Assembly: GCF_018263925.1 (NCBI RefSeq)
Contig: NZ_JAEVHF010000010.1
Coordinates: 157,458-181,457 of the forward strand
DNA: 24,000 bases
From: Kistimonas asteriae
Lineage (GTDB): Bacteria; Pseudomonadota; Gammaproteobacteria; Pseudomonadales; Endozoicomonadaceae
Reading direction: 5' to 3'
The position numbers and the translations under genes are program-made. Below are positions 7,990 to 21,625 of this stretch, one piece after another (position 1 is the stretch's first letter; every line of letters starts with the position of its first letter). The notes under the pieces are model-generated. The model saw only the letters and a list, made by a program, of their open reading frames with translations, had not been told where the DNA came from and ran no database searches.

Positions 7990-8610
7990 GTGGAAATAGC
8001 CTGCCTGGATCTGGAAGGGGTACTGGTTCCCGAAATCTGGATCAAATTCGCCGAGCAAACCGGCATTGATGAACTCAAAGCCACCACCCGAGATATTCCC
8101 GATTATGATGTCCTGATGAAACAGCGACTTAAATTGCTGGATCAGCATGGTCTGGGATTGCGGGAGATTCAGGCTGTCATCGCCGAGATGGCGCCACTGC
8201 CCGGTGCCCGTGACTTTATCGACTGGTTACGGGAACGTTTCCAGGTTGTCATTCTCTCTGATACGTTTTATGAATTCGCCCAGCCTCTCATGCGTCAACT
8301 GGGATTCCCGACGTTGCTCTGCCACCGTCTCGAAGTTGATGATAAGGGCAAAGTCACTGACTATAGCCTGCGTCAGAAAGATCCCAAGCGGATGTCCGTC
8401 AAAGCGTTTCATAGCCTGAAATACCGGGTGATCGCCGCCGGTGATTCCTACAACGACACTACCATGTTGGCTGAAGCGGATGCCGGCATCCTGTTCCATG
8501 CACCGGACAATGTCATCGAAGAGTTTCCGCAGTTTCCGGCAGTACATACCTTTGATGACCTGAAAATGGCATTCTGTCAGGCCAGTGTGCGAGACATTCC
8601 ATTGCAGTAA
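7990..8610 (+). CDS. thrH: Phosphoserine phosphatase / homoserine phosphotransferase ThrH (HAD superfamily)
   Basis: 206 aa. GTG start with an AGGAG SD at 7980-7984. MEIACLDLEGVLVPEIWI, TTRDIPDYDVLMKQRL, RFQVVILSDTFYEF, LGFPTLLCH and AAGDSYNDTTML are nearly identical to P. aeruginosa ThrH as remembered. Confidence 0.9.
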   Translation: MEIACLDLEGVLVPEIWIKFAEQTGIDELKATTRDIPDYDVLMKQRLKLLDQHGLGLREIQAVIAEMAPLPGARDFIDWLRERFQVVILSDTFYEFAQPLMRQLGFPTLLCHRLEVDDKGKVTDYSLRQKDPKRMSVKAFHSLKYRVIAAGDSYNDTTMLAEADAGILFHAPDNVIEEFPQFPAVHTFDDLKMAFCQASVRDIPLQ

Positions 8611-8652
8611 ACAACAAGATACTGAAGATATTGTACTGACGGACGGGTAGGG

Positions 8653-10041
8653 CTAGAGCGCTACCCGTTCTGCTTCGAGGCTTTCCAGAACATTCATCAG
8701 GTTTCTGACCTTGGTGATGGATTCCTGATACTCCATCTCGCAATCAGAATCCGCGACGATGCCGCCGCCGCCCCAGCAGTGGATCTGCTGACCATCGGCA
8801 ACCAGTGTGCGAATAGCAATATTGGTATCCATCCGGCCATGGCTGCTGATATAGCCGATAGCACCGCAATACACGGAGCGGGGAACCGGCTCCAGCTCCC
8901 GAATGATTTCCATCGCACGAATTTTAGGTGCGCCGGTGATGGAACCTCCGGGGAAGGCATCCCGTAGCAACATCAGGTTGTCATGTCCCTCGGCCAGTTG
9001 GCCGGTCACCGTGCTGACGAGGTGATGCACATTGGCGTAACTTTCCAGACCAAACAATACGGGGACTTTAATAGAGCCAGGTTTGCAGTTACGCCCCAGG
9101 TCATTACGCAACAGATCAACAATCATCAGGTTTTCAGCCCGATCCTTTTCGCTGGTCAGGAGTTCGGCGGCGGACGCGATATCTTCGTCCATATCCCGTC
9201 CGCGAGGGCGAGTGCCTTTGATAGGACGGGTTTCAACGTCACCATTATCAGAACGCAACAGTCGTTCAGGTGAATGGCTGAGCACCTTGAGTTCATCGAA
9301 ATCCAGAAACGCGGCGAAAGGGGTAGGGCTGGCAGCTCTCAGTGCCTGATAGGCTGACCATGGGTCACCCTGATAGTGGGCGGAAAACCGTTGTGTCAGG
9401 TTGACCTGGTAGCAGTCACCGGCGGCAATCCAGTCCTTGATATGATGGAAAGCATTCTGGTACTCGGACGGTGACATACTGGCCGAAAAGGGCGTATTCA
9501 AATGGAACGCTGATGGAAACACCGTTGCTGGTTTATGCAGTCGCTGTTCAATGCGATGGCGCTTTTCCTCTGGCATATCCGGATGGGCCACCAGCCAGGT
9601 TCTGCCGGTGTGATGGTCCACTACAACCGCCCAGAGATAAAGCCCCACCAGCATGGACGGGTGTGATGAGTTGCGCGGTGTAATGCGTCCCGGCTCCAGG
9701 CTTTCATTCAGTTCATAGCCCCAGTAACCGGCCAGACCGCCAGTAAACGGCATTTGTTGGCTATCAACCGGAGAGGGGAGTGCTACATGCAGGGTTTCAA
9801 ACGGTGCAGTCGTCAATGGTTGCCAGTTGTCGCTTGTTGACGGTTTACACCAGGTGACACCTGCTTTGTGGCGGTAGAGATTTTCCGGTGCGGCAGTCAG
9901 GATGTCGTACCGGTAACGGTAATCGCCGGTAGAGCGGGCGACACTGTCGAGCATCAACGCATTGCCCAGCGGCCGAAGACGCTCGAACCACTGGACGGAA
10001 TCCGTCAGGTGCGGCAGTTCGGTGATGGAAAGGTGTTTCAT
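8653..10041 (-). CDS. pabB: Aminodeoxychorismate synthase component I
   Basis: 462 aa chorismate-utilising enzyme: SPERLL, ETRPIKGTRPRG, SEKDRAENLMIVDL(L)RND, FPGGSITGAPK and YCGAIGY. Its size and its position next to thrH fit PabB rather than TrpE. Confidence 0.85.
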   Translation of the reverse strand: MKHLSITELPHLTDSVQWFERLRPLGNALMLDSVARSTGDYRYRYDILTAAPENLYRHKAGVTWCKPSTSDNWQPLTTAPFETLHVALPSPVDSQQMPFTGGLAGYWGYELNESLEPGRITPRNSSHPSMLVGLYLWAVVVDHHTGRTWLVAHPDMPEEKRHRIEQRLHKPATVFPSAFHLNTPFSASMSPSEYQNAFHHIKDWIAAGDCYQVNLTQRFSAHYQGDPWSAYQALRAASPTPFAAFLDFDELKVLSHSPERLLRSDNGDVETRPIKGTRPRGRDMDEDIASAAELLTSEKDRAENLMIVDLLRNDLGRNCKPGSIKVPVLFGLESYANVHHLVSTVTGQLAEGHDNLMLLRDAFPGGSITGAPKIRAMEIIRELEPVPRSVYCGAIGYISSHGRMDTNIAIRTLVADGQQIHCWGGGGIVADSDCEMEYQESITKVRNLMNVLESLEAERVAL

Positions 10042-10200
10042 TGACGTGTTTCACTGCGGTTTGGCCGGCATTGTATACCGGATGCCAGGCGTTCAAAAGG
10101 AAGCAATGCGCATTCTCACTGACATACCGCAATGCATTGCCCAAACCAAACGACACTATCTGACCAGTGAATGGAGCTCGTCTGAAAAATAGACCTGACA

Positions 10201-10224
10201 GTCAACAACGTATTCTTTGTTGAC
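10201..10224. promoter_or_regulatory. Perfect 8-bp inverted repeat overlapping a consensus TTGACA hexamer
   Basis: GTCAACAA (10201-10208), 8-nt spacer, TTGTTGAC (10217-10224). TTGACA at 10220-10225 has no good -10 hexamer at 17 +/- 1 bp. Function not established. Confidence 0.25.
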
Positions 10225-10429
10225 ACTTTATTTACAAAGCTTGCACTTATGTCCCAAAGCAGTTATAAAATTCCGCATACCTTGAACAGGTTGAGCCACA
10301 GCGCACAATAATAAAACTGTTGTCCGGGATGTTCGAAATTGCCGGCAAAACAGACAGAACAATAAAAGCAGCATAATAAGAACAATAAAGCGGAAACCTC
10401 ACAATGTTCAGAGACCCATCCTCAGACCG

Positions 10430-10699
10430 ACACTCCGTCGACGCCCGGAACACCGAAGCCCTGGTCTGCGCTGGCAATGCCTGCCTCGCCGTCAGTCTGG
10501 CCGTTGTGTTCCTCTGGACGCTCTGGTAACCGCGGATTCCGCAGGAATCCAATCGGCTTCGTGCGTCCGCTCGTTGTTAAGCATTCGCGGAATGGACGTG
10601 GAAGGCGGTCCGGGTCGCTCCCGGTCCGACATGCAATGTACACTGCATTGCAGTACAGGGAAGGCTAACGCCTGAACATGCAACTGGAGACTAATAATA
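10430..10699 (+). promoter_or_regulatory. GC-rich, hairpin-dense candidate 5' leader of the five-gene cluster
   Basis: Non-coding in all frames by eye. Perfect hairpins: GGATTCC-gca-GGAATCC (10534-10550), CCGGG-tcgct-CCCGG (10610-10624) and ACTGCA-t-TGCAGT (10642-10654). Nine GGA triplets between 10447 and 10690, the last one in the SD (GGAG 10686-10689). Confidence 0.3.
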
Positions 10700-12037
10700 A
10701 TGAAAGGCCTTAAGAAACTGCCTCTGGCAATTGCCATCTCCTCAGTCATGGCTGCCACAGCCCAGGCTGAACTGAAAGCGCTGGAAGACGAAGCCATGTC
10801 GGAAATGACGGGGCAGTCTGGTATTACCATTGAAATGGAAATGCAGGCTGAAGTCGGTGCTGTTACGTATACCGATGAAGGCTCTATCCGTCTTGAAGGT
10901 ATTACTCTTGATAACAATGGTGGCGCACTGAACCAGACCATCAATATTGATATGCTTGAAAAGTCTGACTTGGCTGCTGGTCCTGGCGCTGCAACCAAGG
11001 CTGCTGGCGATATCATCAAGGTTGGCATCAGCAATATGGAAATGGATGTTGAAGTGGATGCGATTCGTACAGGTGATGCCAGCGCAGCCAGCTTGGGTCA
11101 GCTGAATATTGAAGACATTGCTATGAATGGCACAGACATGTATGTCTACGCCCTCGATGGCAAAAAAGGTATCGGTGTTGATGCAATTATCAACCAGTCA
11201 ATCGGGCGCGTAAGCTTCACCGATATTGATCCTAATGCTGCAAATGGTGCTGAAGATGGCGGTACCGTAGCACTCAACGATATCAAAATATCCACTTTGG
11301 ATATGACAGGTACTGAGGTTACTGTTATTGATGGCGCTGAAAATCCTTACGGCACTTTCGATGCTGTGAAAGTAACCATGCCTGGTATCAATAATGGATC
11401 TATTTCTGTTGGTGGTATTCAGGTTGGTAGCGCGACTGATGATACTTATGACCAGTTCAATCAGACTATCGGTGCTGTAGAGCTGAATGGTCTCAATCTT
11501 GCCGGTACTGATATGTACGTTTATGCACCAGATACTGGCAGCGGTATCCGTGTGACCCAGCAAATGAACGTTACCTTGGGTGAAGTCACTTATGTTGCTG
11601 GCGTTCTGGATGCAGATACTGCTGATAAAACCGTTACTGCTTTAACAGCGAAGAAAGCTCAGGTAGATGGACTGATAGGCACGCTTGATCCTGTCGCTGA
11701 TGCCGCTCAAATTGCTCAATTGACTGCAGCATCTAACGATCTGGGTAACAAGATTGCCGTTGCTGATAAGGTTTACTATAAGAGCGGTGAGCTTGGTGGA
11801 ACAGGAAGAACTGGTGATGGCGTAGGTTCTGTGACATTGTCAAATGTCAGCCTGACTTCAGATATCAGCACTATCGCTATTGATGTTGATGCAAGTAATC
11901 ACCTTGTAATTGACGCCCCAATGACTAACGCCAATATCACAGTCGGTGCCATCAATGTTGGTGACGGCAATCTGGGTGGTTTGGCCATCACTGGTCTTAA
12001 TATGACAACCAATAGTATCTCTGTATATGCACATTAA
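10700..12037 (+). CDS. Secreted Gly/Thr/Asp/Asn-rich three-repeat protein, first gene of a fil-like cluster (FilA/DUF6160-like by recollection)
   Basis: 445 aa. Sec signal KKLPLAIAISSVMAATAQA|EL. Then an acidic amphipathic stretch ELKALEDEAMSEMTGQ. No Cys. Three internal repeats, each ending in ...GTDMYVYA or ...ISVYAH(end). SD GGAG lies 10 nt upstream. Confidence 0.85.
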   Translation: MKGLKKLPLAIAISSVMAATAQAELKALEDEAMSEMTGQSGITIEMEMQAEVGAVTYTDEGSIRLEGITLDNNGGALNQTINIDMLEKSDLAAGPGAATKAAGDIIKVGISNMEMDVEVDAIRTGDASAASLGQLNIEDIAMNGTDMYVYALDGKKGIGVDAIINQSIGRVSFTDIDPNAANGAEDGGTVALNDIKISTLDMTGTEVTVIDGAENPYGTFDAVKVTMPGINNGSISVGGIQVGSATDDTYDQFNQTIGAVELNGLNLAGTDMYVYAPDTGSGIRVTQQMNVTLGEVTYVAGVLDADTADKTVTALTAKKAQVDGLIGTLDPVADAAQIAQLTAASNDLGNKIAVADKVYYKSGELGGTGRTGDGVGSVTLSNVSLTSDISTIAIDVDASNHLVIDAPMTNANITVGAINVGDGNLGGLAITGLNMTTNSISVYAH

Positions 12038-12057
12038 GTTCGTATGACGCGATGAAT

Positions 12058-12092
12058 AAAAGGCCGACCGGTTTACCGGCCGGCCTTTTTTA
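12058..12092 (+). terminator. Strong rho-independent terminator/attenuator directly after gene 1 of the cluster
   Basis: AGGCCGACCGG (12061-12071), loop TTTA, CCGGCCGGCCT (12076-12086): 10 G-C pairs and one mismatch, then T6 (12086-12091). Starts 21 nt after the stop codon. Confidence 0.85.
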
Positions 12093-12114
12093 CTTAAACT
12101 GCACGAAAGTACGA

Positions 12115-12135
12115 AAAAATAAAAACAACAAAAAA
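12115..12135 (+). promoter_or_regulatory. (AAN)7 tract upstream of the C39 peptidase start codon
   Basis: AAA AAT AAA AAC AAC AAA AAA, ending 11 nt before ATG 12147. No GGAG-type SD present. Confidence 0.4.
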
Positions 12136-12146
12136 GACTGACTTCC

Positions 12147-12950
12147 ATGATTGAGATTCTGCTGGGCAGCCTGCTTGCCGTTTTCGGCGTCAATACCGCG
12201 TTTGAGGTCAAGCCAAAGGACGAGGGAACGGTCTACTTTGAACAGCAGACCGCCAGCATCCCGGTGACGGATCAGACCGCCGTTGAACCACTCTCTAAGT
12301 TTAAATACAAAAACATCATCCGGCAGACCTATGACTACAGTTGTGGGTCTGCCGCACTTACAACATTGCTGGATTACTATCTGGGACGAAACCTGACTGA
12401 ACGCCAGGTCATGGAAGGGCTGCTCAAATTCGGTGAAGCCGACAAGATTGTCGCCCGTCGCGGCTTCTCTCTGCTGGATATGAAACGTTTCACCCGTGCC
12501 ATCGGTCACAAGAGCGGTGGATTCCGCGCCAGTATGGATGACCTGGCCGATCTGGATCACCCGGCTATCGTGCCCATCGAATACGCGGGCTTTAAGCATT
12601 TTGTCGTGGTGCGGGAAGTGTATAACGGCCATGTCTATGTGGCCGATCCGGCAGTAGGGAATATCAGTTTTACCACTGAGCGGTTCAAGGAGGTCTGGGA
12701 TCGCAATGTGCTGTTTATCGTATTCCCGAACGGCCATGCGCCGCTGCCGAACCTGGAATTGCGTAACGAAGATATGCGGGTCGTCGATGAAAGCACGATT
12801 AACTACCTGGCTTTCCAGGAGTTCCCGCAGTTCAACAACCCGATGGAAAACCGCCTGAAAGATGCCGCCGCCATTCGTCGGCTGGAAAATGCTACAAGCA
12901 GCGGTGAGGTTGGCGGAAGTGTCGGTGGTATGTCTTATAAAAGGCAATAA
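12147..12950 (+). CDS. Stand-alone exported C39-family cysteine peptidase (bacteriocin-processing-type domain)
   Basis: 267 aa. N-terminal hydrophobic segment ILLGSLLAVFGV. QTYDYSCGSAALTTLLDYYLG (Gln60, Cys66) and KHFVVVREVYNGHVYVADP (His151, Asp167, 16-residue spacing) align with the ComA peptidase domain motifs QVDQMDCGVASLAMVFGYYG and LHYYVV...IADP as remembered. Confidence 0.9.
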   Translation: MIEILLGSLLAVFGVNTAFEVKPKDEGTVYFEQQTASIPVTDQTAVEPLSKFKYKNIIRQTYDYSCGSAALTTLLDYYLGRNLTERQVMEGLLKFGEADKIVARRGFSLLDMKRFTRAIGHKSGGFRASMDDLADLDHPAIVPIEYAGFKHFVVVREVYNGHVYVADPAVGNISFTTERFKEVWDRNVLFIVFPNGHAPLPNLELRNEDMRVVDESTINYLAFQEFPQFNNPMENRLKDAAAIRRLENATSSGEVGGSVGGMSYKRQ

Positions 12951-13078: not shown

Positions 13079-14167
13079 ATGAAGTTTCGCATGTCTGCGT
13101 TAACCATGGGGATTGCCCTTGGCGGCCTGGCCTGGACCGGGTACGCTGCCGCCGCCAGCTCAACAGACGCCCGCAGCGCCCTGGCCAAACAGGACGGTGA
13201 CGCCGACCAGAGTAAGCAGCTTGAGGAAGTCTTCCAGGCGGCTGAGAAAAGTTACTCGCTGCTTAAATCCGGTGATACCCGGCTGACTTATTCCTTCAAT
13301 TATTCCAATACCCGTGACGCCAGGATTGATTTTGCCAATGCCACCGGCACCAATGGCACCGAGGTCGTCACCAACTTTGTCCGGAATACCACCGACCATA
13401 CCTTCACCAATACCTTCAGTTTTGATTACGGAATCTGGGACAACCTGACGTTCTCGGTGCGGATTCCGCTGGTTGCCAAGTATTCCGAGAATAAGTCTGT
13501 GGCGGCCGGCAGTTATATCAGTAAAGAAAAGACAGTGTATGGGGTTGGTGACGTTGGTTTAAGCCTCCGCTGGCAGCCATTTGAAGTTCGTCCCGGCCGG
13601 CCATCTCTGACACTGAACAGTTCCTTTAACCTGAAAACCGGCGAGAGTCCCTACGAGATCAATCCCGACAAGGATCTTTCCACGGGTAGCGGTTATTTCT
13701 CTCTCGGTTTCGGGGCGAGCCTTTCTCATGTTCTGGATCCGGTCGTGCTGTTTGGTTCTGTCGGTTACAACATCAACTTCGAAGAAACCGGCCTGAACCA
13801 GTACCAGGGGGATCCCACCAACCGGAACCTCAACCCGAATCAGGACACCCTGACGCTGTCATCCGTTAATCCCGGTGACAGTTACTCCATGAATATGGGG
13901 TTTGCCTATTCGCTCTCTTATGACGTTTCCATGAGTGCGTCCTATCAGATGTCCTATAGCCGGGAGAGTGTGTTCACGTTCAAGGATGGCCGGAGCGTGG
14001 ATTCGCCCTCCAGCACCTCGGGGATTGTCAATATGTCCCTGGGGCTGCGGATGTCGCCTACCTATATCGTCAATATCAATGCCGGTTTCGGCCTGACCGA
14101 GGATTCCCCGGATATCCTGCTGGGCTTTTCGCTGCCGCTCGACCTGGAGGGTCTGAAGGCGGAATAG
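13079..14167 (+). CDS. Putative outer-membrane beta-barrel protein (MetA-pathway/transporter-type channel family by recollection)
   Basis: 362 aa. Signal peptide LTMGIALGGLAWTGYAAAA|SS. GVGDVGLSLRW motif. Long runs of alternating polar/hydrophobic residues (YSMNMGFAYSLSYDVSMSASYQMSYS). No cytoplasmic-type motifs. The family call is from memory only. Confidence 0.72.
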   Translation: MKFRMSALTMGIALGGLAWTGYAAAASSTDARSALAKQDGDADQSKQLEEVFQAAEKSYSLLKSGDTRLTYSFNYSNTRDARIDFANATGTNGTEVVTNFVRNTTDHTFTNTFSFDYGIWDNLTFSVRIPLVAKYSENKSVAAGSYISKEKTVYGVGDVGLSLRWQPFEVRPGRPSLTLNSSFNLKTGESPYEINPDKDLSTGSGYFSLGFGASLSHVLDPVVLFGSVGYNINFEETGLNQYQGDPTNRNLNPNQDTLTLSSVNPGDSYSMNMGFAYSLSYDVSMSASYQMSYSRESVFTFKDGRSVDSPSSTSGIVNMSLGLRMSPTYIVNINAGFGLTEDSPDILLGFSLPLDLEGLKAE

Positions 14168-14258: not shown

Positions 14259-15893
14259 ATGCGCAGTATGATCAGGACTTTTTCAGGCTATGACAGACCC
14301 GGGTGGTGGGCGACGACACTAGTACTTTCGTACTTTTTGGTGTCGCCACTTCAGGCGCAGATGGCCCAGAACCTTACCATCGGCAATCCAAAAGCCATGG
14401 CTATGGCCAATGCGGTCACGGCGGACTTTGTCGGTTTGGACAATGTGCATTACAACCCGGCGGGACTGGTTGACCTGAAAGGTCGGCAGTTTGAAACCAA
14501 GGTCATTGCCGCCTACATGGATATCCGCGCCGAGTTTGAGCCCGGGGAAAATTACGACTTCTTTGGTTTTGATGCGGATGATGATCCCGTCTCCTACACC
14601 AAAAGTCAGACAGCGACGCCTGCCATGTATATTCCGGGTGTCGGACTGACCTCGGTACCGGCATTGATTGCACCCCTTAATGGTGTCTCCTTTAATCCCC
14701 CCGGCTCAAAGTTCACGTTTGCCAACAATCTTTATGCCCCCATGGCGCTCGGTTTCAGCCGGGATGAAGGGGATGATCCTGCGGCATTTCAAGGACAAAA
14801 GGTGGCGCTGCAGCGGATCACTTATCTGTCACCCTCCATTGGCTACAAAGTGAATGATCAGTTGGATGTGGGTCTGTCCGTTGGGTTCTCCCATCAGGCG
14901 CTGGCGATGGAACAGAAATTCCGTAGTCCGAATGATCTTTTGGCGTTGAATGCTAACCCGGCGATTCAGACATTGTTCTGTGATACGCCGGGCATCGATA
15001 TTTTGACGGCGATTTTCCTGGATATCTGTCAGGGGGATGCGAACCCTTTTGCGAATATGGCCGATATGTCACTCGAAATGACAGAAACCCTGTCTCCCAC
15101 TTATAACCTCGGCCTGCGTTGGAAGCCCTATGACTGGCTGCGCTTTGGTCTCGTATATCAGAGTGAAGCGAAGATGAATCTCAAGGGTGACTACTCCTTT
15201 GAGTATTCCGATGATTTTTTTGAATTCATGAAAGGCTTTGCCGGTGCCTATAACCCTTCGATCTTCGGGGCAGCGTTGATTGGTCCGATCAGTGCCAAGC
15301 AGAAGGAGGAGGGTATTGCTTCCATGAAGCTCACCTATCCGCAGCATATCTCGGGTGGCGTGAGTGTGGATCTGACGCCCAGGCTGACCATGAACTTTGA
15401 TTTGAAGTGGACCGATTATGATGTCTGGGAAAACTTCGTGATTGAATTTGACCGGCAGGTGATGGCCATGCAGTTTGCCACTATCCTGGCGCCGGCCAAT
15501 GCGCAACCCAACAGGATTGTCATGCCGCGGGGGTATGAGAGTAAGTGGAGCTGGGCGGTCGGATTTGAGTACGATGTCAGCAACCGTCTCAGCCTGCGTT
15601 GGGGCTATGAAAACCGGCCATCCTCCATCCCGGAAGACAAAGCCGATATCATGGCGCCCCTGGGGGACGCCCATATCATCGGTTTAGGCTTTGGCTACCA
15701 GTGGGATAAGGAATCTGTCGTGGATGTCGGTTTCCAGTATTTCTGGTCCAAGCAGGAAATTCCCGCAGGCACCAGCTGTAACGTCAATTGTGACGGCATC
15801 ACTGATCTGGTTTACAACCCCTATGCCGGAATGGATCTGGAGACCAGCATTAATGCCTACATCTTCTCACTCTCTTATCGGACCCGTTTCTGA
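14259..15893 (+). CDS. Outer-membrane protein transport protein, FadL/OMPP1/TodX family
   Basis: 544 aa. Signal WWATTLVLSYFLVSPLQAQ. Family NPAGL motif (VHYNPAGLVDL) early in the mature part. Beta-strand periodicity throughout. C-terminal aromatic beta-signal ...IFSLSYRTRF. Confidence 0.87.
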   Translation: MRSMIRTFSGYDRPGWWATTLVLSYFLVSPLQAQMAQNLTIGNPKAMAMANAVTADFVGLDNVHYNPAGLVDLKGRQFETKVIAAYMDIRAEFEPGENYDFFGFDADDDPVSYTKSQTATPAMYIPGVGLTSVPALIAPLNGVSFNPPGSKFTFANNLYAPMALGFSRDEGDDPAAFQGQKVALQRITYLSPSIGYKVNDQLDVGLSVGFSHQALAMEQKFRSPNDLLALNANPAIQTLFCDTPGIDILTAIFLDICQGDANPFANMADMSLEMTETLSPTYNLGLRWKPYDWLRFGLVYQSEAKMNLKGDYSFEYSDDFFEFMKGFAGAYNPSIFGAALIGPISAKQKEEGIASMKLTYPQHISGGVSVDLTPRLTMNFDLKWTDYDVWENFVIEFDRQVMAMQFATILAPANAQPNRIVMPRGYESKWSWAVGFEYDVSNRLSLRWGYENRPSSIPEDKADIMAPLGDAHIIGLGFGYQWDKESVVDVGFQYFWSKQEIPAGTSCNVNCDGITDLVYNPYAGMDLETSINAYIFSLSYRTRF

Positions 15894-15964: not shown

Positions 15965-17191
15965 ATGACAATAATAACCCGGTGCTGTTCTGGCAGTTTA
16001 TTGATGTTGGGTGCAATGGCAGGCCTTGTAGCGTTGCCCGCTGGCGCATCGGAACGTTATTTCACGTATATCGACGAGACCGGTAAGATTCGCAATCTGT
16101 TTCTGGATGACGATTTCAAGGAACAGCAGGACGAAGTCCGTCATCGCATCAGCCTGTCGAGCTATATCGATCCTTACGATAACCCCAGCTCTATTGCCTA
16201 TCAGAATTTTTCATCGTCATCTGAAAAGAAGCGTCGCTATTTCACCTGGGTGGATGCTGACGGTACGGTGCAGAGCAGTTTCTATTCAGACCAGTCCGAT
16301 ATCAAACCACGAGACCAGTATGTGCTCGGTTCCGGCGAACGGGCCAGCAGTTACGTGGATGCAGATGTGCTCGAAGGGCGTGGTTTTGTCCGTGGTGAAA
16401 ATGGCCAGCCGTATTACACCTGGACCGACGCAGAAGGGCGCATCCAGAATACGGCTATCACAACGGAGCAGCGGGCACAGGCCTTCAAACGCCCGAGGCT
16501 TCCGGGGATCGGTAGCCGCAATCACGATTTTACCGATGGCAATGAATTGCTGCTGAAAGCGATGCCGGCACCAGTAAGTCAGAACATTGCGTTAAGCCCG
16601 GAACTGGCGGGTATTCTCGATGCAAATCGAGAGCAGCGACGTCAACCCCAGCGGGCTCGGGATGCGGAGTTGGCCCAGGCGTTTTCCGACGGTTGCTGTA
16701 TCCAGATGGACGTGCGCAATTTTGAAAAGCCGGGGCTTGATCAGGCGAAGTATGATGAATTTAATCGCTTCACGCCGTTGTTCGATTTTCCCACCGGGCT
16801 CAGCTATTACAGCGGTTATGTTATCCCGGATGATAAACCCAGCTCAGCCGTTCGCGTTCGCAGCTTTTCCAATCAGGATGTGATGTATCCCAGCCTCTTA
16901 TTTCTGGATGCCGCCCGGCGTCCGACGCGCCTTGTGACCGATGCCATCTACCGCCTGAACCCGGAAACCTGGCACAGCTATGCCTATATCGAAGGCATCG
17001 TTGCGCTTAAGCCCTGGCTGGGTGAACGTTATGTTGTTGTCATGACGACCGAGGAAGCATTAGAGCAGCAAACCCTAGACAACAAACCCTTTGCCCGGCC
17101 GCTGGATATGAAATCAGTTGCAGTGGAGGAGGGGATGGTGGTTCGAGAGCATGCCTCCACGGGTTCCTTTGAGGTGACGTTCCTGAAATAA
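15965..17191 (+). CDS. Periplasmic protein with three YFTWxDxxG (DUF4124-like) repeats and a MalM-like C-terminal domain (FilE-like by recollection)
   Basis: 408 aa. Signal LLMLGAMAGLVALPAGAS|E. Repeats YFTYIDETGKIRN (aa 32-44), YFTWVDADGTVQS (92-104) and YYTWTDAEGRIQN (150-162). C-terminal MYPSLLFLDAARRPT ... GERYVVVMTTEEALEQQT parallels E. coli MalM VFAPNVLILDQNMTP ... QQKLYVLVFTTEKDLQQTT as remembered. Good SD GGAGG 8 nt upstream. Confidence 0.8.
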   Translation: MTIITRCCSGSLLMLGAMAGLVALPAGASERYFTYIDETGKIRNLFLDDDFKEQQDEVRHRISLSSYIDPYDNPSSIAYQNFSSSSEKKRRYFTWVDADGTVQSSFYSDQSDIKPRDQYVLGSGERASSYVDADVLEGRGFVRGENGQPYYTWTDAEGRIQNTAITTEQRAQAFKRPRLPGIGSRNHDFTDGNELLLKAMPAPVSQNIALSPELAGILDANREQRRQPQRARDAELAQAFSDGCCIQMDVRNFEKPGLDQAKYDEFNRFTPLFDFPTGLSYYSGYVIPDDKPSSAVRVRSFSNQDVMYPSLLFLDAARRPTRLVTDAIYRLNPETWHSYAYIEGIVALKPWLGERYVVVMTTEEALEQQTLDNKPFARPLDMKSVAVEEGMVVREHASTGSFEVTFLK

Positions 17192-17293: not shown

Positions 17294-17974
17294 ATGAACC
17301 AGCCGGAACCCCGCACTTTATCCGATCGCGTGTTCACGCATATTCAGCGTGCCATTGTGCGTGGGGATATTCCGGGGGGCAGTAAACTCAGTGAATCCAG
17401 TCTGGCGGAACAGTATGGCATCAGCCGTGGGCCGTTACGTGAGGCTATCCGTCGCCTCGAAGGCTGCAAACTGGTGGTTCGTGAGCCCCACAGCGGCACC
17501 CGTGTTGTCTCCCTGTCTGCGGAAGAACTCCTTGATATCTATCATATCCGTGAAGTCATGGAAGGGCTGGCCTGTCGCCTGGCGGCTGAGAATATGACCC
17601 AGGCCCAGATTGACGATATGCGGCGTTTGCTGGATCAGCATCGGGAGCAGTCTGAACTCAAGGACGGGGTGGCCTATTTCCAGCAGGAAGGGGATCTCGA
17701 TTTTCATTACCGGATTATCAGCGCATCCGGCAATCGTAAACTGGTCGAATTACTGTGCGGTGAGCTTTACCACTTAATCCGTATGTATCGCTACCGGTTC
17801 AGTACGCAGCAGAATCGGCCCTTGCGGGCTTTCACGGAACATCAGCAGATCATTGATGCGTTAGCGGATCGGGACGGCGAGCTGGCCGAACTGTTGATGC
17901 GTCGGCATATCCGGGTCTCCCGCAACCGACTGGAAGAACGGATCAGAAACGGATGTGAGGCTGTGCCACCGTGA
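17294..17974 (+). CDS. GntR-family (FadR/FCD subfamily) transcriptional regulator, probable regulator of the prp genes
   Basis: 226 aa. N-terminal winged helix (GSKLSESSLAEQYGISRGPLREAIRRLE), then an all-helical FCD-type C-terminal domain. Sits directly upstream of prpB, as in Pseudomonas/Vibrio-type prp loci. Confidence 0.88.
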   Translation: MNQPEPRTLSDRVFTHIQRAIVRGDIPGGSKLSESSLAEQYGISRGPLREAIRRLEGCKLVVREPHSGTRVVSLSAEELLDIYHIREVMEGLACRLAAENMTQAQIDDMRRLLDQHREQSELKDGVAYFQQEGDLDFHYRIISASGNRKLVELLCGELYHLIRMYRYRFSTQQNRPLRAFTEHQQIIDALADRDGELAELLMRRHIRVSRNRLEERIRNGCEAVPP

Positions 17975-18040
17975 CAGTGGGGCAGACTGTACTAAAACAA
18001 TAGCGATGACAACGACTGCACGAATCACAGGAAACCGCGT

Positions 18041-18928
18041 ATGACCGAACTGACACCCGGCCAGAAGTTTCGCAAGGCCGTTGAAGCGAACAACCCGTTA
18101 CAGGTGGTGGGCACCATCAATGCCTATTGCGCCATGATGGCTGAAAAGACGGGCCATCAGGCGATATATTTGTCGGGCGGGGGCGTGGCCAATGCCTCCT
18201 ATGGATTGCCGGATCTTGGCATGACGTCGATGAACGATGTGCTGGAGGATGTTCGCCGGATCACTGCAGCCAGCACGCTGCCACTGCTGGTTGATATTGA
18301 TACGGGCTGGGGCGGTGCTTTCAATATTGCCCGTACTATTCAGGAAATGATTCGGGCGGGCGCCGCCGCAGTCCACATTGAAGACCAGGTGGCGCAGAAG
18401 CGTTGTGGTCATCGCCCGAATAAAGCCATTGTCAGCAAAGAGGAAATGGTGGACCGGGTTAAGTCGGCCGTGGATGCCCGTACGGATGAGAGTTTTGTCA
18501 TCATGGCCCGCACCGATGCGCTGGCTGTCGAAGGGATGGATGCCGCGATTGAGCGCGCCTGTCTCTGTGTCGATGCCGGCGCTGACATGATCTTCCCGGA
18601 AGCCATGCAGACACTGGACGATTACCGTCGTTTTGTTGAGGCCGTCAAGGTGCCGGTATTGGCCAATATCACCGAATTTGGCCAAACACCGCTGTTCAAC
18701 AGTCAGGAACTGGGGGACGCCGGCATTGCCATGGTGCTTTACCCATTGAGTGCGTTCCGTGCCATGAATCAAGCGGCGCTGAACGTCTATCAACACCTGC
18801 TGGCAGACGGCGATCAGACCCAGGTAGTCGACACCATGCAAACCCGGATGGAACTGTACGATTTCCTTGGTTATCACGCCTATGAGCAGACTATCGACCG
18901 CCTGTTTGAAGAAAAGGGCGAGGAATAA
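18041..18928 (+). CDS. prpB: 2-methylisocitrate lyase
   Basis: 295 aa, isocitrate lyase/PEP mutase fold. [23 protein letters not shown] and the catalytic loop [15 protein letters not shown]. Confidence 0.95.
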
Positions 18929-18999
18929 ACTGGCAGAACAACGCGTTAGCAACAATTCTTAACGACGTCTCTTACACACAAGAACCAGAGGGAGCACGT

Positions 19000-20124
19000 A
19001 TGGCTGAGAAGAAACTGACCGGCGCCGGCCTCCGGGGCCAGACGGCAGGACAGACTGCACTCTGTACCGTGGGCAAAAGCGGCACCGGTCTCACTTACCG
19101 GGGTTACGACATCCATGAGCTGGCGAAGTACGGCACGTTCGAAGAAATCGCCTGGTTGTTGTTTCACGGTGAGTTGCCCAACAGTGAAGCGTTGGCGAAT
19201 TACAAGAAGAAGCTGCAAGGGTTACGTGGGTTGCCGGAACCGCTGAAGCAGTGCCTGGAATTGATTCCTGCGGATGCGCATCCCATGGATGTCATGCGGA
19301 CGGGTTGTTCCATGCTGGGTAATCTGGAAACGGAAACCGATTTCAGTCAGCAGCAGGATGTGACCGACCGCCTGCTGGCAGCGTTTCCCTCCATCCTCCT
19401 TTACTGGTACCGGTTCAGCCATGATGGCGTCCGTATTGATACAGAAACCGATGATGACTCCATTGCTGGCCATTTCCTGCATCTGCTGCACGATAAAAAG
19501 CCGGCTGACAACCATCGTCGCTGTATGGATGCGTCCCTGATTCTTTACGCTGAGCATGAGTTTAATGCGTCGACGTTCACGGCACGCGTCTGCGCTTCAA
19601 CCCTCTCTGATATGCATTCCTGTATCACGGCAGCTATCGGTTCTCTGCGCGGGCCGCTGCATGGTGGCGCCAACGAAGCCGCGATGGAAATGATTGAGCG
19701 TTTCCAGTCAGCCGCAGAAGCCAAAGAAGCCATTCTTGGCATGCTGGAGCGCAAGGACAAGATCATGGGCTTTGGGCATGCGATCTACAGCACGTCTGAC
19801 CCCAGGAACGGCATCATCAAAGAATGGTCCAAGACTTTGGCGGACGAAGTCGGGGATACCGTGCTGTATCCCGTCTCGGCCATGATTGAGCAGGTCATGT
19901 GGGATGAGAAGAAGCTGTTCCCGAATGCCGATTTCTTCCACGCCTCGGCTTATCACTTCATGGGTATTCCCACCAAGCTGTTTACGCCGATCTTTGTTTG
20001 TTCGCGGCTGACCGGCTGGGCTTCCCATGTGATGGAACAACGCGCCAACAACCGGATTATCAGGCCATCGGCGGAGTATACCGGCCCTGAGCCCCGCGCC
20101 TGGGTGGGCATAGAAGCACGCTAA
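19000..20124 (+). CDS. prpC: 2-methylcitrate synthase
   Basis: 374 aa citrate-synthase family: [33 protein letters not shown] and GFGHAIY. Positioned between prpB and prpD. Confidence 0.95.
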
Positions 20125-20176
20125 TAACGGTAATACCGCATTAATAACGTCATACAACCAGAAGTCAGAGAAAACA

Positions 20177-21625
20177 ATGAGTGCAAACGTTGATGTAAAT
20201 GAACGCCCGGATTACGACCAGGTACTGCAGGATATCGCTGATTATGTTCTCAACTACAAAATTGAGTCCGATGAAGCGCTGGATACTGCCCGTAACTGTC
20301 TGATGGATACCCTCGGCTGTGGTCTGCTGGCCCTGCGTTTTCCCGAATGTACCAAACACCTTGGCCCCATCGTCGAAGGCACCGTTGTTCCCCACGGTTC
20401 ACGTGTCCCAGGCACATCGTTCCGTCTGGATCCAGTGAAAGCGGCCTGGGATATTGGCTGCATTATTCGCTGGCTGGATTACAACGATACCTGGCTGGCG
20501 GCCGAGTGGGGGCATCCGTCTGATAACCTGGGTGGCATCCTGGGTGCAGCGGATTACCTGTCACAAAGCCGGATGGCCAATGGTCAGGCGCCGCTGACCA
20601 TGCGCGATGTGCTCGAAGCCATGATCATGGCGCACGAGATTCAGGGGTGCCTGGCGCTGGAAAACAGCTACAATCGTGTAGGTCTTGACCATGTCGTGCT
20701 GGTGAAAGTGGCGTCGACGGCGGTTGTTGCGAAATTGAAAGGCGCCAACCGTGAGCAGTTGCTGTCCGCGCTGTCCCATGCCTGGGTTGATGGCCAGTCT
20801 CTGCGTACCTACCGTCATGCGCCGAATGCGGGTTCCCGGAAGTCCTGGGCAGCGGGTGATGCCACTTCACGGGCAGTTCGTCTGGCGGATATCGCCATGC
20901 GCGGTGAGATGGGCGTCCCCGGTGTGCTGAGTGCGCCTAAGTGGGGCTTCTATGATGTACTGTTCAAGGGGCAGGAATTCAAATTCCAGCGTCCTTACGG
21001 CAGCTATGTGATGGAGCATGTACTCTTCAAGATCTCTTTCCCGGCCGAATTCCACTCTCAGACAGCTGCTGAAGCCGCTGTTCGCCTGCATGACCAGGTG
21101 AAGGGACGGGTTGATGAGATCGAGCGGGTTGAGATCACTACCCATGAATCCGCGATCCGCATCATCTCCAAGGTCGGCCCCCTGGCCAATGCCGCCGACC
21201 GGGATCACTGTCTCCAGTATATGACGGCCGTCCCCCTGCTGTTCGGCAACCTGGTGGCTGAGCACTATGAAGACGATTTCCATGCGGCGCATCCTGAAAT
21301 TGATATGCTGCGTGAGAAGATGGTCATCCTGGAAGATGAGCGTTATTCCCGCGAGTACCACGAGCCGGAGAAACGCTCCATTGCGAATGCGATCCAGGTG
21401 TTCTTCAAGGATGGCAGCAGTACTGAAAAAGTGGCGGTGGAGTATCCGATCGGTCATCGTCGTCGCCGTGAAGAAGGGATTCCGCTGTTGGAGTCCAAGT
21501 TCAAGGCCAATCTAGCGACCCGGTTCCCGGCTGGCCGTTGTGAGGCGATCTTTGAGCTGTGCAAGGATCAGGCGAAGCTGGAAGCCACGCCGGTCAATGC
21601 CTTCATGGATCTGTTTGTGATTTAA
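20177..21625 (+). CDS. prpD: 2-methylcitrate dehydratase
   Basis: 482 aa. Collinear near-identity to E. coli PrpD blocks as remembered: [79 protein letters not shown] and [10 protein letters not shown]. Confidence 0.95.

Follow-up and report, generated by a model that had tools for sequence, protein, structure and literature searches.

A probable three-module pilin encoded at a putative Fil-type pilus locus of Kistimonas asteriae

The stretch of DNA analysed here (the window) comprises 24,000 nucleotides of Kistimonas asteriae, positions 157,458 to 181,457 of contig NZ_JAEVHF010000010.1 (RefSeq assembly GCF_018263925.1), and contains a five-gene cluster whose first gene encodes a candidate pilus subunit, called the pilin below. 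All coordinates are positions within the window, on the + strand unless stated. The pilin open reading frame (10700..12037) specifies 445 amino acids (aa) followed by a TAA stop, and the precursor, as read from its sequence, begins with a Sec-type signal peptide of 23 residues (10700..10768; MKGLKKLPLAIAISSVMAATAQA, the next residue being E) that has a basic n-region, a hydrophobic core and an AQA motif; we infer that signal peptidase cuts after residue 23. It is followed by an acidic propeptide of 16 residues (ELKALEDEAMSEMTGQ; 10769..10816), a leader of the double-glycine type ending in G-Q. The remainder consists of module 1 (R1, aa 40-151; 10817..11152), linker 1 (LDGK, of turn type; 11153..11164), module 2 (R2, aa 156-276; 11165..11527), linker 2 (PDTG; 11528..11539) and module 3 (R3, aa 281-445; 11540..12034), which closes with the C-terminal family motif VYAH and carries a hypervariable, probably helical-hairpin insertion (aa 301-365; 11600..11794). 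The original prediction, made from the sequence alone, had proposed three tandem repeats with these boundaries and linkers; they tile the mature protein (aa 40-445; 10817-12034) exactly, as 112 + 4 + 121 + 4 + 165 = 406 residues, and all of the motif strings that it quoted are present at the residues given. The mature protein has no cysteine, a pI of 4.05 and a composition rich in Gly, Ala, Thr and Asp.

Four further genes complete the cluster. The first encodes a FilB/FapD-like periplasmic C39 cysteine peptidase of 267 residues (12147..12950), which matches the NCBIfam models for FilB (8.8e-87) and FapD (1.6e-34) as well as Pfam Peptidase_C39; it has a hydrophobic segment at its N-terminus, and in an alignment with the peptidase domain of PCAT1 its Cys66, His151 and Asp167 fall on the catalytic residues. 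Next comes a FilC/FapF-like outer-membrane channel of 362 residues (13079..14167; NCBIfam FilC 3e-95, FapF 2.3e-17), residues 113-353 of which match the FapF structures PDB 5O65, 5O67 and 5O68 with E-values of ~8e-12. The fourth gene of the cluster encodes a FilD-like outer-membrane protein of the OmpP1/FadL/TodX family (544 aa; 14259..15893; NCBIfam FilD 1.4e-148, Pfam Toluene_X 1.3e-76), and the last a MalM-domain protein (408 aa; 15965..17191; Pfam MalM 8.5e-20) that matches only MalM and DUF4124 among NCBIfam and Pfam models.

The N-terminal part of the pilin (aa 1-81), signal peptide included, is a Pfam DUF6160 domain (PF19657), with a score of 91.1 bits (E = 5.3e-26) that passes the gathering threshold of 27 bits. 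The NCBIfam model pilus_FilA (NF050077) scores 47.8 bits (1.3e-12, best stretch aa 6-66), below its cut-off of 220. Among the traits of a Fil-type system, we found the adjoining FilB-type C39 peptidase with its catalytic residues, and both FilC and FilD in the operon. No chaperone-usher or type IV pilin family was found among the neighbouring genes in NCBIfam and Pfam scans, and the leader combines a Sec signal peptide with a GQ propeptide and is not a class III (prepilin peptidase) signal. The pilin matches no FapC, FapB or curlin repeat family in NCBIfam or Pfam.

Relatives of this system have been named in Acinetobacter. FilA of strain Tol 5 was identified by Edman degradation as the subunit of the Fil fimbriae (PMC3498257; PMC11784438), long, curved fibres that were observed chiefly when the cells had triacylglycerol to grow on (PMC3498257); the A. 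baumannii operon A1S_0690-0695 has been described only as a predicted pilus that is abundantly produced in pellicles (PMC5376624). Up-regulation of the Acinetobacter Fil fimbriae accompanies pellicle and biofilm growth, and one component, FilF, has been put forward as an antigen for vaccines. The Kistimonas cluster resembles these systems in the homologous leader and N-terminal region of its pilin and in having FilB, FilC and FilD in the same order; it differs in having a MalM-domain protein in place of any FilE or FilF match, and in that its pilin is a triplicated minimal module, whereas Acinetobacter FilA is probably single-module. In the literature searched, we found nothing relevant on DUF6160, Fil pili or filABCDEF, and neither an assembly route nor a subunit architecture.

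The homology of the three repeats is only partly visible in the single sequence, in which Smith-Waterman alignment gives z = 6.5 for R1-R2 (reached by 0 of 300 shuffles), a marginal z = 2.9 for R2-R3, and an R1-R3 value (z = 1.0) that is not significant. When the repeats are compared with hhalign as profiles built from eight homologues, all three pairs align end to end: R1-R2 with E = 6.8e-15 (probability 98.4%), R1-R3 with E = 1.5e-10 (96.9%) and R2-R3 with E = 6.7e-8 (94.6%). Every multi-module homologue shows the same module boundaries, with short linkers of 4-6 residues rich in Gly, Asp and Asn. A mismatch between repeat boundaries and termini in homologues had been named beforehand as a result that would refute the original prediction; the two coincide. 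A tree of 26 modules, taken from nine proteins, sorts them according to position (m1, m2 and m3), so the triplication predates the divergence of the nine proteins and each position has been retained since.

Two of the repeats can also be aligned with a pilin that has just one unit. Against a 137-position profile of mature single-unit pilins, R1 aligns to positions 2-136 (E = 9.9e-13) and R2 to positions 1-136 (E = 1.2e-11), each spanning the whole mature pilin, and each repeat is accordingly equated with one pilin module. R3 reaches the profile by its C-terminal 34 residues only, which fall on the C-terminus of the profile, the match being partial because of the large insert. Each of the modules in the window is ~25-30% identical to single-unit pilins. 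A hidden Markov model (HMM) built from single-unit pilins picks up R1 and R2 in their C-terminal halves only and overlooks several of the homologues that have more than one module; since it is too insensitive, modules were counted by hhalign and motif boundaries instead. By these comparisons, the pilin reads as three complete pilin modules fused by 4-residue linkers, a natural covalent trimer.

The mature protein had been described as ending on the last residue of its last repeat, and here the description needs correction. His445 lies outside the internal pattern: R1 and R2 end ...YVYA, followed by L or P, and the internal junctions read ...YVYA-LDGK-GIGV... and ...YVYA-PDTGS-GIRV.... Where one molecule follows another, the corresponding virtual junction would be ...VYAH + SGITI.... 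His445 is instead the family-wide C-terminal residue, the commonest final three residues among 169 proteins being WAH (97), YGH (30) and YAH (8).

A profile of 43 DUF6160 proteins (A2) matches a single PDB entry, chain A of 9XFV ('bacteria pilus (like)'), with E = 2.3e-9, through one N-terminal and one C-terminal stretch. With a profile from an alignment of 79 single-unit relatives together with R1 and R2 (A3), the E-value is 1.6e-46, and the last residue of the chain is the terminal His of the family. A phmmer search of the PDB with the single mature pilin sequence returned no match, so the link depended on the family profile. These matches, with the 91-bit DUF6160 score, support the part of the original prediction that saw a beta-rich fibre subunit, and place the protein in a fibre-forming family. 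As described in its paper (PMC12956863), 9XFV is 'pilus-like-alpha', a filament from karst-cave water solved by cryo-electron microscopy, which served the authors only as a handedness control; each 173-aa subunit adds a rise of 11.70 Å and a twist of 283.86 degrees, the filament contains alpha-helices, and its subunit fits a monomeric AlphaFold model with a TM-score of 0.844. In the part of that text that was read, no connection is drawn between this filament and Fil pili, the DUF6160 family or processing by C39 peptidases.

The subunit of 9XFV is of the same family as the Kistimonas pilin: it starts directly after GQ (DGVSI...) and ends in ...WAH, and its close relatives lie in FilB/FilC/FilD operons. 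They are DUF6160 proteins of 160-175 residues from Burkholderiales, with precursors of the form ...ASA / MSSIDDAALSQVSGQ / DGVSI...WAH; 9XFV is assigned the UniProt sequence A0A257CJ09, and a search for this entry gave a closest match at 77-82% identity, not the protein itself. The window pilin has three modules per chain and the 9XFV subunit just one, of 173 residues; the helical insertion is at a different point of the module in the two. The rise and twist correspond to ~4.7 subunits per turn, and a rise of 11.7 Å with that number of subunits describes a coiled helical rod, not a single-file stack. The original prediction of seamless head-to-tail stacking gains no support from the related filament; a head-to-tail picture can hold only along the helical path. 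The concept behind it, that an intramolecular contact between repeats is also the contact between subunits, is shared with the curli subunit CsgA. CsgA has five repeats, single beta-arch rungs of ~20 aa that continue across subunits; the Kistimonas pilin has no sequence relationship to it and no match to the Curlin repeat, and its repeats are complete modules of the size of a pilin.

The GQ site that precedes the mature protein is strongly conserved. In a leader logo of 160 family members, Gly is invariant at -2, and the -1 residue is Gln in 126 members and Arg in 34; hydrophobic residues occupy -4, -7, -12 and -15, with Asp at -10, and +2 is always Gly, followed by (V/I)(S/T)I. In one homologue (P0007) the 39-residue leader is identical at 39 of 39 positions, while the mature part is only ~60% identical. 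Double-glycine leaders, the substrates of C39 peptidases, have the same hydrophobic spacing, and in canonical ones Gly, Ala or Ser stands at -1. The Kistimonas leader has the Gly at -2 and the hydrophobic residues at -4/-7/-12/-15 in common with the bacteriocin leaders cut by enzymes such as PCAT1, as the aligned Cys, His and Asp are common to the peptidases; it differs in its -1 residue (Gln here, Gln or Arg across the family) and in following a Sec signal, and the peptidase in the window is free-standing and, like FapD, predicted to be periplasmic, rather than a cytoplasmic domain of an ABC exporter. The chain in 9XFV begins with the Asp that follows GQ, and the leader positions of the A3 profile are absent from it. 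Removal of the leader at Gly38-Gln39, as originally proposed, is very probable, and cleavage most likely falls after Gln39, because the site is conserved, a C39 peptidase gene adjoins, and the N-terminus of the 9XFV chain lies at that point. The target of FapD is still described as unclear (PMC5557850); the Kistimonas locus supplies a clear candidate substrate site for periplasmic C39 peptidases.

Module 3 is set apart from the other two by its insertion. This had been given as about 45 residues; the string quoted for it is in fact 54 residues long (aa 304-357), and the variable region is ~57 residues when counted against an insert-free homologue (P0008), the block used for comparison being aa 301-365. 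The block is 71% identical in Kistimonas scapharcae (P0003), compared with 88-100% for the other blocks, 29% identical in a second homologue (P0004), which has 64 extra residues there, and absent from P0008. The suggestion that it is probably helical agrees with AlphaFold2, which gives two helices of ~24 residues (266-289 and 296-319 in mature numbering) with pLDDT values of 75-79. The insert has the pattern of an exposed, fast-evolving surface element, as judged from the block identities, and would mark the exposed face of a fibre.

Outside the insert, the structure models are less informative. For the whole mature pilin, AlphaFold2 with a 43-sequence alignment reaches a pLDDT of 62.6 and a pTM of 0.41, so that the geometry between modules is unreadable; module 1 alone, with an 81-sequence alignment, reaches a pLDDT of 61.8 and a pTM of 0.45, and its first 20 residues are unstructured. 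At this low confidence, ~eight long strands of 8-20 residues are predicted per module, among them strands on either side of linker 1 (106-113 and 118-137, mature numbering). A solenoid-like subunit had been envisaged, but models of ~62 pLDDT with long strands in place of short solenoid rungs give it no support. In Foldseek searches, 9XFV is the top match for both models with a probability of 1.00, at TM-scores of 0.19-0.47 and with a query pLDDT of ~62. The other matches are all of low probability, to outer-membrane barrels (OmpT/Pla) and unrelated folds, and were rejected as artefacts of long hairpins in a poor model; the sole solenoid-type match among solved structures is a phage tailspike (8iq9/8iqe), a beta-helix, with probabilities of 0.04-0.07.

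A variety of module arrangements is found among the relatives. Multi-module bodies are rare: of 1.84 billion proteins, just 9 cluster representatives match. Their sources are Kistimonas scapharcae (88% identity), genomes of uncultured Kistimonas (84%), Parendozoicomonas haliclonae (37%) and samples associated with sponges and molluscs, and the three-module architecture appears confined to this small Kistimonas/Endozoicomonadaceae clade. On one metagenomic contig, where the genes between pabB and prpD are arranged as in the window, the pilin has two modules and 309 residues, so that module number varies between orthologous loci. Long DUF6160 proteins of Marinobacter and Bermanella (275-515 aa) carry a large insert, with one core motif on its N-terminal side and one on its C-terminal side, and read as single modules; one of these from Marinobacter (P0012, 282 aa) matches the FilA model (279 positions) end to end, and FilA is therefore probably single-module too, since P0012 reads as one module with a large insert. 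In Roseateles, single-unit pilins are followed in the operon by FilB, FilC and FilD homologues. A locus of Roseateles koreensis (L001:8301-12528) has three clear DUF6160 paralogues of 212, 174 and 177 residues, together with a 317-aa gene with a faint DUF6160 match, a 174-aa gene with a weak match to the FilA leader and a 278-aa gene without any match; all of these pilin-side genes precede FilB, FilC and FilD. Having several pilin genes, as here, and having one gene with three fused modules may be different answers to a single need.

Parendozoicomonas haliclonae (L009:4830-6281) has two three-module pilin genes in tandem. In the second of these (P0044, 483 aa) the leader ends AVAQ / AS, not TGQ / xG, and the C-terminus is ...RITGKE, not ...YAH, so that the motifs at both ends are changed; it may be a minor, capping or anchoring subunit. 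Two shorter proteins were also noted. One (P0048, 166 aa) has a single module with an R1-like body, ends ...RIWGH, and has a lipoprotein-like signal (LAAC) that replaces the DUF6160 leader; the pilin module may thus occur outside the Fil leader context. The other (P0047, 144 aa) looks like a C-terminal fragment of a multi-module protein.

Expression signals were sought on both sides of the pilin gene. The intergenic region between the pilin and peptidase genes contains a G+C-rich hairpin with T-runs on both strands (12062..12085, strand unassigned; GGCCGGCCGGTAAACCGGTCGGCC). The region holds four terminator-like sites, against 1.5 +/- 1.1 in shuffled sequences, of which three (one on the plus strand and two on the minus) overlap the hairpin; an Rfam scan of 9900-12300 gave sub-threshold matches only, at the hairpin, to the terminator-like ends of small RNA models. 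The hairpin looks like an attenuator, and as such would increase the amount of pilin relative to that of the machinery. On the upstream side, the pilin gene is preceded by a non-coding region of ~660 bp (10042-10699) in which Rfam detects no riboswitch, and candidate sigma-70 sites upstream of the gene are no commoner than in shuffled sequence.

The cluster sits between pabB on one side and a GntR regulator with prpBCD on the other. The flanks (7990-10041 and 17294-21625) are ordinary metabolic and regulatory genes: thrH, pabB, a GntR/FCD regulator, prpB, prpC and prpD. The same flanking genes are found in Kistimonas scapharcae and at the two-module locus, and because these metabolic genes recur in relatives, the cluster is regarded as a stable chromosomal locus and no obvious mobile island. 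The MalM gene is at the same position in Kistimonas, in Parendozoicomonas and in the two-module locus (L002). The FadL/TodX-family outer-membrane gene (here 14259-15893) is always part of the cluster, and a link between the Fil-type pilus system and hydrophobic substrates is possible.

We consider it probable that the first gene of the cluster encodes the fibre subunit of a Fil-type (DUF6160/FilA-family) pilus, made of three fused complete pilin modules, which would be processed, exported and polymerised as follows. The precursor would cross the inner membrane via Sec and lose its 23-aa signal peptide, and the adjoining periplasmic FilB/FapD-like C39 peptidase would cut off the 16-aa propeptide after Gly38-Gln39, exposing the conserved strand SGITIE at the new N-terminus. 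The Cys-free, acidic product of 41 kDa would leave the cell through the FapF-like FilC channel, by homology to Fap, with the FadL-like FilD and the MalM-like protein as putative accessory factors; FapD activity is needed for Fap secretion (PMC5557850). Outside the cell, it would polymerise into a helical rod like that of 9XFV, one polypeptide providing three consecutive subunit-equivalents, with the module 3 helical insert as a surface-exposed, fast-evolving decoration. LDGK and PDTG would then probably close, as covalent turns, a contact that is made non-covalently in single-module pilins, where the C-terminal strand (...WAH) of a subunit would meet the N-terminal strand that proteolysis has freed on the following subunit. 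The turn-like linkers, the strands predicted on either side of linker 1 and the unstructured start of module 1 when modelled alone suggest that successive modules pair in this way, C-terminal strand with N-terminal strand, in a contact that the fusion would close covalently.

Several observations weigh against this reading. The NCBIfam scores of all four Fil-like proteins are below the cut-offs (FilA 47.8/220, FilB 291/475, FilC 320/630, FilD 495/970), and by these scores they would be homologues and not equivalogs; moreover, no FilE or FilF counterpart is recognised, and the cluster has no further gene before the GntR and prp genes. The -1 residue of the leader is Gln, unlike the Gly, Ala or Ser of canonical C39 substrates, and the absence of the leader from 9XFV could in principle reflect disorder in the map, not cleavage. 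The AlphaFold2 models are poor and the Foldseek TM-scores low (0.19-0.47), so the module fold and the geometry between modules are not established by them. The closure of a hairpin by the linkers is drawn from their composition and, at the first junction alone, from secondary structure of low confidence; for the second the model gives no prediction (pLDDT <50).

Three other explanations of the gene were weighed. That the repeats arise by chance or from composition, in a beta protein rich in Gly, Thr, Val and Ile, the exact tiling being a coincidence, would accord with the single-sequence scores of R1-R3 (z = 1.0) and R2-R3 (z = 2.9), but we give it a negligible probability: profile comparisons align the repeats end to end with E-values from 7e-15 to 7e-8, the boundaries are conserved in all homologues, there are position-specific module clades and a two-module orthologue, and R1 and R2 align with independent single-unit pilins. 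The hhalign results, the single-unit profile alignments and the module tree refute the chance reading. A functional amyloid similar to Fap, in which FapC-like repeats are exported unfolded through a FapF-type pore and stack as cross-beta (the 'seamless solenoid'), is a very improbable alternative, despite several likenesses. FapC has three imperfect repeats joined by two linkers, and the Kistimonas subunit, which is Cys-free, beta-rich and predicted to be secreted, has the same layout of three repeats and two linkers; the window also encodes a periplasmic C39 peptidase and a channel that are homologous to FapD (1.6e-34) and FapF (2.3e-17; PDB 5O65 8e-12), and secretion of Fap depends on FapD activity (PMC5557850). 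Yet the subunit family is unrelated, with no match to FapC, FapB or curlin families in NCBIfam or Pfam and a composition rich in Gly, Ala, Thr and Asp rather than Gln and Asn; the repeats are whole modules of 112-165 residues, each homologous to the complete pilin of the solved filament 9XFV, not short amyloid repeats; and the Kistimonas system adds a FadL-family component. Nor is the related filament a cross-beta fibre: it is a helical rod that rises 11.7 Å per subunit, contains alpha-helices and has a subunit that fits a monomeric AlphaFold model at a TM-score of 0.844 (PMC12956863).

The third alternative retains Fil-type export and dispenses with polymerisation, the product being a monomeric rod-like surface or secreted protein (an adhesin or matrix component) in which triplication replaces assembly. 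It is consistent with the presence of a single DUF6160 gene in the cluster, with the finding of no other leader-like site in six frames of the window, with a specialised lineage of 9 cluster representatives among 1.84 billion proteins, and with AlphaFold2 models that are uninformative on oligomers. We nevertheless think it unlikely, for both terminal motifs of the family are kept at the true termini of the fused protein, xG(I/V)(T/S)I after GQ and the aromatic-small-His at the C-terminus, as expected if the termini still serve in assembly. The terminator-like hairpin after the gene fits an abundant structural subunit, and relatives of the protein (Tol 5 FilA and 9XFV) form filaments.

The kind of system described here, Fil/DUF6160 pili, is known from databases and from one unannotated structure, whereas the three-module pilin is new. 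The host clade of Kistimonas, Parendozoicomonas and bacteria associated with sponges and molluscs suggests a role in attachment to animal hosts. A link between DUF6160, the Acinetobacter Fil operon, components of FapD/FapF type and 9XFV was not found in the literature searched; the Kistimonas locus ties together DUF6160, the Acinetobacter Fil operon, Fap-type secretion components and the biologically unannotated filament 9XFV. A more far-reaching reading, which we think less likely than not, is that Fil/DUF6160 pili would form a distinct class of surface fibre that takes a Fap-like route (periplasmic C39 peptidase and FapF-type pore) and in which an N-terminal beta-strand freed at GQ pairs with the C-terminal (W/Y)(A/G)H strand of its neighbour; the Kistimonas type would then be a single-chain trimer. 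The three-module pilin is a natural fusion experiment: should its modules sit in consecutive subunit positions, the linkers tell which termini adjoin in the fibre. If the far-reaching reading is true, two of every three junctions would be closed covalently by turns of 4-5 residues, and the order of subunits and the contact between them in the fibre would be revealed, together with an asymmetric unit of three modules that displays one hypervariable loop.

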